A DNA stretch of 19,508 nucleotides from an uncultured Thioalkalispiraceae bacterium (GTDB taxonomy: Bacteria; Pseudomonadota; Gammaproteobacteria; UBA6429; Thiohalophilaceae): contig CAYQUC010000062.1 of NCBI GenBank assembly GCA_964420605.1, positions 1 to 19,508 on the forward strand. The letters are read 5' to 3'. The notes below the pieces were generated by a model. The model ran no database searches, was not told where the DNA came from, and saw nothing but the letters and a program-made list of their open reading frames with translations. The translations under genes and the position numbers were made by a program. Positions 1,449 to 7,212 of this stretch are shown here, piece by piece (within the stretch, counting starts at the first letter, position 1; each line of letters begins with the position of its first letter).

Positions 1449-1523
1449 TCCTAGGTGCACCATTGGTAGGTGGTCTCCCTGTTAAGGAGGTGTATGTCAG
1501 TTCGAATCTGACCTTAGGAGCCA
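1449..1523 (+). tRNA. tRNA-Asn (anticodon GTT)
   Basis: Folded by hand into a cloverleaf. Acceptor TCCTAGG/CTTAGGA (one G-U pair). D-stem CACC/GGTG, with the D-loop containing GG. Anticodon stem TCTCC/GGAGG with loop CTGTTAA. T-arm GTCAG-TTCGAAT-CTGAC. Discriminator G, CCA encoded. Confidence 0.85.
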
Positions 1524-1593
1524 AAATTAGTGAATATGTGTTCGATACATTAATCGTATGCAGAGTATTTTAAAACCTTAACGGAGAATTAAC

Positions 1594-1788
1594 ATGAAAA
1601 TTAAAATCAGTATTACAAAAATTAGAAATTCATTACATGATCATCCTTTATTACGAAAAGGCGGGGTTCATGACAAGGCAGAAAAGACCAAACGAAGAAG
1701 TGATAAACAAAAACTGAAGAATGAATGGCGTTCTTTAATGACATTTTTAAATAGTATCATTAAAGAACCCCATTTATACCAAATATAG
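1594..1788 (+). CDS. arfA: ArfA-like small basic protein (alternative ribosome-rescue factor A family candidate), 64 aa.
   Basis: GGAG RBS 8 nt upstream. The protein contains 'LHDHPLLRKGGVHDKAEKTKRR', which resembles the ArfA core 'LHDPLFRQRVEKNKKGKG'. It is very basic. A perfect 11-bp hairpin lies within the 3' end of the ORF, as expected for arfA mRNA, which is cleaved by RNase III to give a non-stop message. Confidence 0.5.
   Translation: MKIKISITKIRNSLHDHPLLRKGGVHDKAEKTKRRSDKQKLKNEWRSLMTFLNSIIKEPHLYQI
1731..1767 (+). promoter_or_regulatory. Intra-ORF hairpin TTCTTTAATGA-(15 nt)-TCATTAAAGAA (11-bp perfect stem) near the 3' end of the arfA-like ORF. Candidate RNase III processing site.
   Basis: Inverted repeat read directly. 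The stop codon lies at 1786-1788, just downstream. Confidence 0.5.
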
Positions 1789-1810
1789 TTTTATGGGTGT
1801 TTGATATTAG

Positions 1811-1888
1811 CTCGGTATAGCTCAGTCTGATTAGAGTACTCCGTTTGGAACGGAGAGGTCATGGGTTTAAATCCTAGTGCCGAGACCA
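1811..1888 (+). tRNA. tRNA-Pro (anticodon TGG), atypical. The D-loop lacks G18G19 and the T-loop is TTTAAAT (no C56).
   Basis: Acceptor CTCGGTA/TGCCGAG (one G-U pair). Anticodon stem CTCCG/CGGAG is perfect, with loop TTTGGAA. Discriminator A, CCA encoded. T-stem ATGGG/CCTAG has one mismatch. The D-loop and T-loop deviations co-vary. Confidence 0.7.
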
Positions 1889-1902
1889 GTTAAATTTTAA
1901 TG

Positions 1903-1972
1903 GCGTTTATAGCTTAATTGGTAAAGCTCATGATTCATGCAGATATCGGTTCAAGCCCGATTAATCGCGCCA
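1903..1972 (+). pseudogene. Degenerate tRNA-like gene, probably CAT-anticodon (Met/Ile-type) with a deletion in the anticodon-stem/variable region.
   Basis: Good D-arm (GCTT-AATTGGTA-AAGC), good T-arm (ATCGG-TTCAAGC-CCGAT) and CCA are present. The unit is only about 70 nt. The CATGA-TTCATGC-AGATA segment cannot form a 5-bp anticodon stem, and the acceptor stem has a mismatch. Confidence 0.35.
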
Positions 1973-1990
1973 ATTTAAAAGGAGTACATT

Positions 1991-2167
1991 ATGACTTGTT
2001 ATGAAATAAATAAATTTAGACGGCTTGTTGATCAGCTTAGTGTACCAGATATTAGAACCGTTCCGACACAGGCTAATTTACGTTGGTTATTGGCTAATGC
2101 CTGGATTGAGAATCGTAGTAATCCTAAATTATATGATTTATTACGCCTAATTCGACCTTTTGCCTAG
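1991..2167 (+). CDS. Hypothetical 58-aa protein (MTCYEINKFRRLVDQLSVPDIRTVPTQANLRWLLANAWIENRSNPKLYDLLRLIRPFA).
   Basis: Hand-translated. It has a strong RBS (AAAAGGAG) 7 nt before the ATG and lies between tRNA genes. No recognisable family. Confidence 0.35.
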   Translation: MTCYEINKFRRLVDQLSVPDIRTVPTQANLRWLLANAWIENRSNPKLYDLLRLIRPFA

Positions 2168-4680: not shown

Positions 4681-4732
4681 TTTGAATATAAATTGAAGCG
4701 AATATAATAATCTAATCAGAATGTTAACGAGT

Positions 4733-4762
4733 GTGCGCCTAATGCTTTAGGCGCATTATTTT
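4733..4762 (+). terminator. Rho-independent terminator GTGCGCCTAA-TGCTT-TAGGCGCAT followed by TATTTT.
   Basis: A 9-10 bp GC-rich perfect stem followed by a T-run, directly downstream of the SPFH gene stop. Confidence 0.7.
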
Positions 4763-4793
4763 AAATAGCGAATAAAAATAAAAAGTGAATGAC

Positions 4794-5744
4794 ATGGACA
4801 AAATATTATTAAATGAAATAATTGCTTGTATGCCAAAGGATAGAACTATTTTTCCGTATTTTAAGGGACGTTATGCGTTGATGCTGTTAAAAAACATTAT
4901 TGGTGAGAGTACTTCCATAGCTAACATTAGAAAAACGTCATTCGCTGCTTTATTAGATAAGCCAGAGGTTAAACTGGCATTAGCGATGGCGGGTAAGGGG
5001 CTGCTTACACCGGATATCTTAAATAGTGTATGGCCTGAAGAATCTTACCAGTTTATTCTTACCGTAGGACGTTGGGGCAGTAATAGTTATGGCGGAGACC
5101 AGACCTCACGTCGAGGTTATAATTTGGTGTTACAGCTCAATTTTTCGAAACAACACGATAACGTGTATAACAATATGGTTAAACCCAACAAGGAATCATT
5201 ATTAAATTATTATGCTCATCCAATATTAGAGTTGAATGAACGAGACTATTTTCGAGAAACATTAGCCTGGTCACGTATTGATTTGGATTTTACTAAGGAT
5301 GAGGCTTTAATCGAAGAAGTTCAAAGCGACTGGTTGCGTCGAGCAAAAAGGTTATTACGCTCAGCACAATTTTATAAAAAGCATAATAGTAAAATGGTGA
5401 CTCGTTGGAATGTTAATGGTGAGGTGGATGATGTTATTCAGTATTGTGAAAAAATATTATCACCGTATAACAAAATATGGTCAGAAGCCATGTTAGCGGC
5501 AACCATTGAATTTATACAAAATGAATTAGGAATTAATACTATTTATTATCATACAGAAAGTACCGGTTATCGAGTTAAAAAAATTAAATATACTCAACCA
5601 CCACGTTCTTTATATAGTAAATTACCAAATAAATTTTGTTTTTCAGAAACCCAGGATGCGCCTGAGTTTTTAAAACAGGATAAAACTTTTAATCGAGGTT
5701 ACAAAAAAGTGAGTAACCCACAATGGTACCGCATGGCGGTATAG
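4794..5744 (+). CDS. Hypothetical protein (~316-319 aa), first gene of the apparent rtcB operon. No recognisable domain.
   Basis: Long ORF on the same strand. The start may be GTG 4785 or ATG 4794, and the RBS is weak. Its stop overlaps an AGGAGG SD for the next small ORF. No GGQ, nucleotide-binding or HTH motifs were found by eye. Confidence 0.6.
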
Positions 5745-5752
5745 GAGGTGTA

Positions 5753-5995
5753 TTGTGTGCAAATATTATTATACTGATCAGGGATATTCCTTTTGAGACA
5801 ACAAGTAAACGACGAAAAGGCTATCCATCTGAAACGAAGGTAAAGAAGGGTATCCGAATTATAAATGGTAATAAATATTTGATCGAAAAATTGGGTCGTA
5901 ATGATTTGTGTGTTTGTAATTCCGGTCGTCGATTTCAAAAATTGTTGCTTAGCAACGAAAAAATTCGATGGCTCTTTACGTCACGATTATTTTAG
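5753..5995 (+). CDS. Putative small protein (~80 aa, TTG start; ATG 5723 alternative) with a degenerate SEC-C-like '[13 protein letters not shown]' motif.
   Basis: A strong AGGAGG at 5744-5749 lies 4-5 nt before the in-frame TTG at 5753. The ORF fills the 270-nt gap between the upstream ORF and rtcB. Coding status is uncertain. Confidence 0.25.
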
Positions 5996-6015
5996 AGAGT
6001 AAACAGGATACAATA

Positions 6016-7212
6016 ATGCCAATTAAAACATTAATTACAAAAGGTAAAGTACCAGTCAAGATCTATACTGATGATATTGAGCACCAAGCATATCAACAGT
6101 TATTAAATATATCTCAGTTACCTTTTATACACAGTCATGTTGCCGCCATGCCTGATGTGCATTTTGGAAAAGGTGCAACAGTGGGCTCGGTAATACCGTG
6201 CAAGGGCGCTATTATTCCAGCTGCTGTTGGGGTTGATATTGGCTGTGGTATGAATGCCTTACGATTATCGATTAAAGCCGACGATTTACCGGATAATTTA
6301 CATGGAATACGCTCCGCTATTGAAGCGGCTATTCCTGTGGGTTTTAATATGCATAAAACCGATAAAGCCCGAAACTCAACCATTCGTGCGTTATCCCCAG
6401 GATTAAATTATTTATTGCAGAAGCATCCAAAACTGTTAAAAATGCAAAAGAAACCCGCTCAAACCTGGGTGCGACAGTTAGGTACTTTGGGTGGCGGTAA
6501 TCATTTTATCGAGTTATGCATTGATGAAAATAGCGATGTGTGGATAATGTTGCATTCTGGTAGTCGAGGTGTCGGTAATATCATTGGGCAGTATTTTATT
6601 CGTTTAGCGCAAAAAGACATGGGCAAACACCTTATAAACTTACCTGACAAAGATTTAGCGTATTTTAATGAAGGAGCAGAACATTTTGACGACTATGTTA
6701 GTGCTGTTCATTGGGGGCAGGATTATGCGATGGATAACCGTCGTGAAATGATGCGTTTAATTGTGATTGCTTTAAAGAAACAGTTACCGTTGTTTGGTGT
6801 CACCAAGGAAGCAATAAATTGTCACCATAATTACGTGTCGATTGAGAATCATTTCGGTGAAAATGTATACATTACCCGAAAAGGCGCAATTCGTGCTGGT
6901 GAAGGTGAACTGGGCATAATTCCGGGCAGTATGGGTGCTAAATCGTTTATTGTTAAAGGTAAGGGTAATCCGGAGTCGTTTTGTTCTTGCTCGCATGGTG
7001 CCGGTAGAAAAATGAGCCGAGCAAAAGCTAAACGTGAATTCAATCAGTACGATTTAGAACAACAAACCTTAGACGTTGAATGTCGAAAAGACAAATCTGT
7101 AATCGATGAGATTCCAGCAGCATATAAGGATATTGATGTTGTGATGGCAAATCAGAGTGATTTGGTTGAAGTGGTGCATACACTAAAACAGGTTGTTTGT
7201 GTTAAAGGCTAA
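6016..7212 (+). CDS. rtcB: RNA-splicing ligase RtcB (3'-phosphate/5'-OH RNA ligase), 398 aa.
   Basis: Hallmark RtcB motifs are present: MPDVHFGKGATVGSVIP, GGGNHFIEL, HSGSRGVGN, NCHHNY, IPGSMGAKSFIV, CSHGAGR. It is collinear with E. coli RtcB from 'MPIKTLITKGKVPV'. The listed 5968 start is likely a 16-codon over-extension. Confidence 0.95.
   Translation: MPIKTLITKGKVPVKIYTDDIEHQAYQQLLNISQLPFIHSHVAAMPDVHFGKGATVGSVIPCKGAIIPAAVGVDIGCGMNALRLSIKADDLPDNLHGIRSAIEAAIPVGFNMHKTDKARNSTIRALSPGLNYLLQKHPKLLKMQKKPAQTWVRQLGTLGGGNHFIELCIDENSDVWIMLHSGSRGVGNIIGQYFIRLAQKDMGKHLINLPDKDLAYFNEGAEHFDDYVSAVHWGQDYAMDNRREMMRLIVIALKKQLPLFGVTKEAINCHHNYVSIENHFGENVYITRKGAIRAGEGELGIIPGSMGAKSFIVKGKGNPESFCSCSHGAGRKMSRAKAKREFNQYDLEQQTLDVECRKDKSVIDEIPAAYKDIDVVMANQSDLVEVVHTLKQVVCVKG

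Follow-up and report, generated by a model that had tools for sequence, protein, structure and literature searches.

A conserved gene module built around RtcB, P316 and orf64 in gammaproteobacteria, with a probable role in repair and rescue of the translation apparatus

The left third of a 19,508-nt stretch of DNA from an uncultured Thioalkalispiraceae bacterium (GenBank assembly GCA_964420605.1, contig CAYQUC010000062.1, positions 1 to 19,508, hereafter the window) is a probable RNA-repair gene cluster (positions 189–7212). Its conserved core consists of three genes, encoding the RNA ligase RtcB, a 316-amino-acid protein (P316) and a small basic protein (orf64), and its accessory layer of an XRE repressor gene, a tRNA array, an HNH gene and an SPFH gene. 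The gene block is genuine: its members co-occur far above random, and chance juxtaposition is ruled out. We consider it probable, with moderate confidence, that the cluster is a chromosomal, horizontally shuffled module for translation-apparatus repair and rescue. Coordinates below are those of the window, and all features of the module are on the + strand except the XRE gene.

Loci were sampled with P316 as bait in contigs representing one genome per species, and the best 80 of at least 457 matches were taken. They were analysed in three ways, by tblastn with the window proteins, by all-against-all clustering of open reading frames (ORFs) within 9 kb (81 loci), and by inspection of tRNA gene content and gene order. 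RtcB adjoins P316 in 55 of the 80 species-level loci, in both gene orders (tblastn), and the gap between the two genes is 8–10 nt in several loci. Clustering of ORFs over 81 loci recovered orf64 in 57, RtcB in 55, SPFH in 15, XRE in 13, HNH in 9, a small protein called orf58 in 7 and a SEC-C protein in 5; SPFH and RtcB were linked in 13 loci. The gene order of the window is reproduced exactly in loci L004, L005 and L006. In a reciprocal sample, collected from metagenome contigs with orf64 as bait, RtcB was found at most 5 kb away in 20 of the 39 loci that had enough flanking sequence, and in several orf64-selected loci RtcB adjoins orf64 directly, without P316. The linkage spans distant gammaproteobacteria, with protein identities of 40–85%, despite shuffled gene order. 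Since linkage was kept while order was shuffled over such distances, selection on the gene combination can be argued. The first-pass annotation of this DNA had proposed that these genes form a single module and that the same combination should be sought in other genomes. Both points are borne out, as the genes remain together in dozens of species in spite of shuffled order, and the combination recurs in many gammaproteobacteria, with a co-occurrence far beyond chance.

Other genomes add further genes to the module. An RbfA-like protein is encoded directly 5' of RtcB in 18 of 81 loci (e.g. L033:3971–4420), RtcA neighbours the module in six (e.g. L030:7042–8130), and a CCA-adding enzyme with an HD domain is found in four (e.g. 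L072:6683–7936); the window has none of the three. Because RtcA, the CCA-adding enzyme and the RbfA-like protein join the module elsewhere, its theme appears to be repair of the translation apparatus.

RtcB joins RNA ends bearing a 3'-phosphate or a 2',3'-cyclic phosphate to 5'-OH ends. The window RtcB (6016–7212) matches the Pfam RtcB family over its full length (PF01139, E 1e-130), as well as phrog_1075. It scores below the cutoff of the E. coli RtcB equivalog (183 versus 407 bits) and below that of the PrfH-linked RtcB2 (TIGR03073, 143 versus 271.8 bits), and no exact copy of the protein was present in the contig index. P316 (4794–5744), the RtcB partner, has a divergent GNAT-like fold and no Pfam match. 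Its family is uniform and stand-alone, with 833 cluster representatives at E <= 1e-3 and no fusions, and none of the relatives listed by a word-index search has a Pfam domain. Because its adjacency to RtcB is near-obligatory, with gaps down to 8–10 nt, P316 probably binds RtcB as a cofactor or modifier. The second partner (5723–5995), small and basic, contains half of a SEC-C motif (CxCxSG); its Pfam SEC-C match is borderline, at the cutoff, and it is conserved in four to five other loci. The RtcB gene with novel partners claimed by the first-pass annotation is thus recovered, both partners being without an informative family. The SEC-C-like small proteins of the window and of L005, L006, L073 and L075 all stop directly past CxCGSGRRF and contain the first cysteine pair of the zinc motif only.

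The third core gene, orf64 (1594–1788), encodes a small basic protein whose core reads RNPxxxxPLLRKGGVHEK. Its family has about 1900 members, none of them named or assigned a Pfam domain, and their common core is RNPxxxxPLLRKGGVHEKSxKxKR. The proteins are 45–75 amino acids long and consist of a conserved N-terminal region of about 45 residues and a variable tail. In the window, a 24-bp hairpin (1722–1776) begins directly after a conserved Trp codon, in frame and inside the ORF, the stop codon being at 1786. The hairpin has a z-score of -4.8, and seven of its pairs show compensatory changes among eight relatives. Distant members have unrelated sequence, yet a hairpin in the same place. Of 55 orf64 genes, 39 have a strong hairpin that contains or precedes the stop codon, and in only one does the stop come first. 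A U-tract follows the hairpin in L060, L061 and L073, turning it into an in-ORF intrinsic terminator. The protein tail that the hairpin encodes lacks conservation, and in two members it is interrupted by stop codons.

ArfA and BrfA are rescue factors produced from non-stop mRNAs, and accumulate only once trans-translation is saturated. Like ArfA (PF03889) and BrfA, orf64 is small and basic and has a hairpin or terminator inside its ORF ahead of the stop codon. It differs in showing no sequence homology and in its linkage to RtcB, for which no counterpart is known in ArfA. Homology to ArfA was rejected on these results: no PF03889 match was obtained at E<10 in Pfam, NCBIfam being negative as well; a PDB profile search, in which ArfA-ribosome structures were included, returned no ArfA chain; and hhalign against E. 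coli ArfA and against the ArfA family alignment gave a probability of 0.3–0.4%. Of the proposed ArfA-like factor with its hairpin, the in-ORF hairpin stands and the homology does not. Our reading, by analogy of design, is that orf64 may be an analogue of ArfA and not a homologue. With a hairpin or terminator located upstream of the stop codon within the ORF, the mature mRNA would have no stop codon, and the peptide would build up only when trans-translation is saturated. Residues 8–26 of orf64 (RNPxxxxPLLRKGGVH) resemble a segment of uL4, RSPIFRKGGV, which is its best match in the PDB profile search (E = 1.1, not significant).

The SPFH/Band-7 gene (3433–4680) is identified by Pfam Band_7 (PF01145, E 3e-22). 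Its start is probably M33 at 3529, giving 383 amino acids, because homologues align only from residue 25–39 or so. From this start the protein has, as judged by reading the sequence, no hydrophobic stretch long enough for a membrane span, and a terminator-like hairpin lies 3' of the gene (4733–4766). These features agree with the earlier description of a soluble SPFH/band-7 protein with its own terminator. A gene 5' of it (3091–3164), found by ARAGORN and Rfam, was called tRNA-Leu(TAA). All 15 SPFH loci have such a tRNA-like gene 350–450 nt 5' of the SPFH gene. The D-arm and T-arm are nearly invariant and the top of the acceptor stem is often mismatched, while the anticodon varies by locus (CAT, GAT, TAA, ATA, TTT, TAG, or a six-base loop). 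Covariation backs the cloverleaf: each of the five anticodon-stem pairs and each of the seven acceptor pairs shows compensatory changes. Since it stands upstream of every SPFH gene with a varying anticodon, "Leu(TAA)" is not a spare isoacceptor. A conserved 3' extension follows (3165–3262): one hairpin like an anticodon arm, one that is short and has a tetraloop, one like a second T-arm (GCGGTTCGACTCCGT, loop TTCGAnT), and two more. It resembles a class II tRNA that has lost its 5' half and keeps the anticodon arm, variable arm and T-arm.

[quoted passage not shown] According to the part of bioRxiv 10.1101/312249 that we consulted, an RNA-repair system of RtcB, Band-7 and b7a-tRNA was predicted by Burroughs and Aravind in 2016, and is reported there without experimental validation. 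The window has all three components in the form described in that part of the source, that is, RtcB, an apparently soluble Band-7 protein and a tRNA-like gene beside the Band-7 gene. The likeness extends to the shuffled, modular gene order and to the presence, in other loci, of a CCA-adding nucleotidyltransferase and RtcA. The statement that this was not a described system has to be withdrawn for the RtcB/Band-7/b7a-tRNA association. P316 and orf64, the XRE repressor, the 3' extension that follows the b7a-tRNA and arrays of 20 genes went unmentioned in the literature searched, which did not extend to the original 2016 paper. The module is thus partly predicted before and partly new. The rtc locus of Pseudomonas aeruginosa contains an SPFH gene.

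The tRNA array comprises tRNA-Asn(GTT) (1449–1523), tRNA-Pro(TGG) (1811–1888) and tRNA-Gln(TTG) (2189–2263), all found by ARAGORN and Rfam, and a tRNA-His pseudogene (1903–1972; Rfam tRNA match 1903–1969) which aligns with the intact array tRNA-His of relatives. In the Rfam alignment, the pseudogene has a 6-nt deletion that removes the entire anticodon loop. The array proposed by the first-pass annotation is confirmed, with Asn, Pro and Gln as its members, "Leu(TAA)" belonging with the SPFH gene. With three tRNAs and one pseudogene, it falls short of a long tRNA array of tens of genes. The tRNA-Asn is 84–91% identical to the array tRNA-Asn of L004 and L006, and the tRNA-Asn and tRNA-Pro of the window are 81–91% identical to members of long arrays. 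In L004, L005 and L046, 19–20 tRNA genes separate the XRE gene from the other module genes, so that the window array is a reduced remnant; L072 has eight tRNA genes in the same slot and no detected XRE gene. Within the array lies orf58 (1991–2167), a conserved 58-amino-acid protein without family match that is 64–90% identical in six other loci. The HNH endonuclease gene that follows (2323–2892) is linked in nine loci. The earlier call of an HNH nuclease is upheld by matches to Pfam HNH_5 and HNH, and the protein also matches phrog_16726 over its full length.

The tRNAs might be thought to merely supplement the codon usage of the adjacent low-GC, horizontally acquired pilin-glycosylation genes, the proximity of RtcB and SPFH being incidental. 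The block at 7356–11970 has a GC content of 26–30%, and Asn-GTT, Gln-TTG and Pro-TGG read A/T-rich codons, as this explanation would have it. However, relatives hold near-complete sets of 19–20 tRNAs in the same slot without any low-GC block, the "Leu-TAA" gene is an SPFH-linked tRNA-like RNA of variable anticodon, and the tRNAs are embedded among module genes. Codon supplementation is therefore largely refuted by the comparative data, and we regard it as very improbable. The low-GC block codes for a Wzy_C/O-antigen-ligase protein that has TPR repeats, for another TPR membrane protein, and for a 269-amino-acid protein of unknown type. It lies directly 5' of the pilin genes, resembles a pilin-glycosylation insert, and is absent from L001 and L003. 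The right half of the window is core chromosome, with two tandem pilin genes followed by zapD, coaE, pilD, pilC and pilB; the tandem genes, at 12317–12775 and 12981–13454, are paralogous type IV pilin genes.

At its left end the module is bordered by the XRE-type repressor gene (189–824, - strand; start probably the ATG at 809, by homologues). The protein has a helix-turn-helix (HTH) at its N-terminus, and its C-terminal domain is conserved and of unknown type. Its assignment as an XRE repressor is confirmed, weakly, by HTH_3 and DicA matches and by matches to the phage repressor families phrog_4 and phrog_8, and the gene is conserved in divergent orientation in 13 of 81 loci. It is separated from tRNA-Asn by 620 bp of non-coding DNA. 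There, three direct repeats CTTGAAA(A/T)T(A/T)A, spaced by 21–23 bp (853–907), overlap a conserved -10 box TATACT (889–894) between the divergent XRE gene and a leader ORF, and are candidate operators for the repressor. The leader ORF (927–1079) has 50 codons and ends with (E/D)LGM(T/S) followed by TAG. Its position and frame are kept in seven loci, among which the last codons differ synonymously and the ribosome-binding site is conserved. It may act as a leader that senses translation, or be a small gene in its own right. A hairpin (1097–1125) and a strong intrinsic terminator (1135–1175, 16-bp stem and U7) come next and are conserved in seven loci (1097–1175, z = -6.4). A sigma-70-like site at 1084–1112 was rejected as promoter: its -10 box is in an unconserved loop, and the conserved TATACT at 889–894 is preferred.

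RNAalifold and a covariance model delineate a structured RNA at 1270–1439, about 170 nt in length, with an 18-bp stem closing it. The model matches nine loci, all of which have the XRE gene and all but one a tRNA gene. In the alignment 92.7% of cells are paired, against 40–45% in slid controls, and 38 of 50 pairs show compensatory changes; these counts lean toward structure because the alignment was fitted to the covariance model. No Rfam family matches this RNA at E<5. Identities as Y RNA, T-box, HEARO, GOLLD or ROOL were rejected for the RNAs of the module, in each case for lack of an Rfam match at E<5.

A close parallel for the combination of array, nuclease and ligase is in cyanobacteria. 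In Anabaena PCC 7120, translation inhibitors jointly induce a long tRNA array (the trn operon), rtcB and the HNH gene all8564, and direct repeats over the -10 box mediate this response (PMC8421152). The TrcR regulon of this organism contains rtcB, two HNH genes, a slipin gene or operon and GNAT genes, and TrcR is a ribbon-helix-helix repressor restricted to cyanobacteria (PMC10272220). The window shares with Anabaena the tRNA array, HNH, rtcB, slipin/SPFH and proteins of the GNAT class, direct repeats over the promoter, and pseudo-tRNAs in an array that spreads by horizontal transfer. In contrast, the Anabaena genes are dispersed over the chromosome and a megaplasmid, whereas the window module is a single locus, its repressor is of the XRE/HTH type instead of ribbon-helix-helix, and its array has only three tRNAs and a pseudogene. 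The rtcBA-rtcR and rsr/Y RNA/rtcBA operons of E. coli and Salmonella share the theme of RtcB with a structured, tRNA-like non-coding RNA (YrlA), whereas RtcR, RtcA, Rsr and Y RNA are not present in the window.

Comparison of close relatives revealed losses. The closest relative, L081 (GCA_006240815.1, VAOX01005448.1), has 87–90% nucleotide identity with the window. Relative to the window it misses tRNA-Asn (window 1448–1567) and has an intact tRNA-His, an 815-bp deletion in SPFH (window 3563–4377) and the b7a anticodon ATA in place of TAA. Loci L001–L003, at the same chromosomal site beside the pilin genes, keep only XRE, orf64, orf58 and P316, without RtcB, SPFH and HNH, and L003 retains a C-terminal remnant of SPFH. 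The module is thus accessory and eroding in the lineage of the window, and the copy studied here is itself in partial decay, its array having gone from about 20 tRNAs down to three, with one pseudogene.

These observations invite another explanation, which we hold to be unlikely, namely that the cluster is what is left, in decay, of a tRNA-array element gained by horizontal transfer, a cryptic long array of the integrative and conjugative element, plasmid or phage type, that it has no present function in this genome, and that the linkage results from common descent and co-transfer, not from cooperation. The pseudo-tRNA-His of the window, the tRNA-Asn indel and SPFH deletion between relatives that are 87–90% identical, and the reduced state of L001–L003, with the SPFH stub of L003, all fit such a remnant. 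Long tRNA arrays are reported to be horizontally transferred and often cryptic (PMC8421152), and the HNH and XRE proteins match phage families. On the other hand, linkage is kept under order shuffling at 40–85% protein identity in distant gammaproteobacteria, the RtcB, P316, SPFH and HNH ORFs of the window are full length, and compensatory changes maintain the RNA structures.

Signs of a discrete element are also missing. The first-pass annotation had looked to flanking att repeats or an integrase, to a composition distinct from the core, and to a phage-borne counterpart, and none of these came out. No integrase or transposase was found among the window ORFs, and no flanking att direct repeats were detected, the window beginning 188 bp beyond the XRE gene with the left flank outside it. 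The GC content of the module resembles that of the core pil genes, and in other genomes the flanks are ordinary, unrelated chromosomal genes. In IMG/VR P316 has no relative, and a distant search of phage DNA records returned RtcB as sole match. Because chromosomal contexts vary, integrase and att sites are missing and GC content is core-like, the pattern is one of evolutionary mobility and frequent loss and not of a discrete mobile element.

A third alternative is an offensive or abortive-infection defence of the toxin-antitoxin kind, in which HNH or P316 would be the toxin, the latter by acetylating aminoacyl-tRNA as TacT and AtaT do, and the tRNAs with RtcB would neutralise or reset it. GNAT toxins acting on aminoacyl-tRNA do exist, the HNH gene weakly matches models of PtuB (Septu or retron effector) and an XRE regulator is nearby. 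However, PADLOC matches in the module are confined to the generic HNH motif, and the other proteins match no defence model. P316 has 316 amino acids and is coupled to RtcB rather than to a small antitoxin, and most loci with P316 and RtcB have neither HNH nor XRE. A defence system of this kind therefore seems to us improbable.

We return to the reading of the module as one for repair and rescue of the translation apparatus. Its functions, including the protection against tRNases proposed at first, we infer from linkage, fold and analogy. RtcB would reseal RNAs cut to 2',3'-cyclic-phosphate and 5'-OH ends, with P316 acting as an RtcB-bound cofactor or modifier. The orf64 peptide would serve as a sensor or rescue factor for stalled ribosomes. 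The soluble SPFH protein and its cognate b7a-tRNA, with the extension, would form a scaffold or decoy particle, and the spare-tRNA array and the HNH nuclease would complete the accessory layer. By analogy with the Anabaena TrcR regulon, the divergent XRE repressor would silence the module via the direct repeats over the promoter.

The closest functional analogy for the pairing of RtcB and orf64 is RtcB2-PrfH, a ribosome rescue-and-repair module (PMC9223846; PMC13166195; Tian et al. 2022, cited at second hand), in which an RtcB paralogue likewise has a partner dedicated to stalled or damaged ribosomes. It differs in that no homologue of a release factor (PrfH, RF2-like) is found among the window ORFs, orf64 being a peptide of 45–75 amino acids. 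Tentatively, and as a possibility only, orf64 might found a new family, with some 1900 members, of alternative rescue or stall-sensing peptides that are made from non-stop mRNAs and arose in evolution independently of ArfA and BrfA. With RtcB and P316 it would then form a "rescue then repair" trio analogous to PrfH-RtcB2, to which fuller modules would add an SPFH-tRNA-like particle, a tRNA array, the 170-nt RNA and one repressor.

Several points weigh against repair and rescue as the function. The linkage frequencies lean toward close relatives of the window's P316, because the 80 loci used were the top ones among at least 457 matches. Read by eye, the alignment of P316 shows no evident acetyl-CoA-binding motif Q/RxxGxG/A where strand 4 meets helix 3, so that P316 may not be an enzyme. 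The homology of orf64 to ArfA is, at the level of sequence, undetectable, and its hairpin could be a mere processing site, or a terminator overlapping the 3' end of the gene. In the leader, an alternative pairing of 1114–1127 with 1140–1153 exists, as for a three-hairpin attenuator; yet the terminator stays the minimum-free-energy fold even with the first arm removed, and the antiterminator is not favoured. Finally, in view of the tRNA-His pseudogene, the losses in L081 and the gene losses in L001–L003, the module may be non-functional in this lineage.

The targets and helpers of bacterial RtcB are known mainly from E. coli and Salmonella, where it is controlled by RtcR, and from PrfH-RtcB2. 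The present locus condenses separate predictions and a dispersed cyanobacterial regulon into a single compact gammaproteobacterial unit. It brings in a GNAT-fold, near-obligatory RtcB partner, a small protein of apparent non-stop-mRNA design, a b7a-tRNA with an unexpected second T-arm module, a new structured RNA, and a leader ORF with an invariant C-terminus. If the proposal for orf64, RtcB and P316 is true, the trio would link detection of stalled ribosomes to RNA ligation, and would be a second, independent case of rescue coupled to repair.

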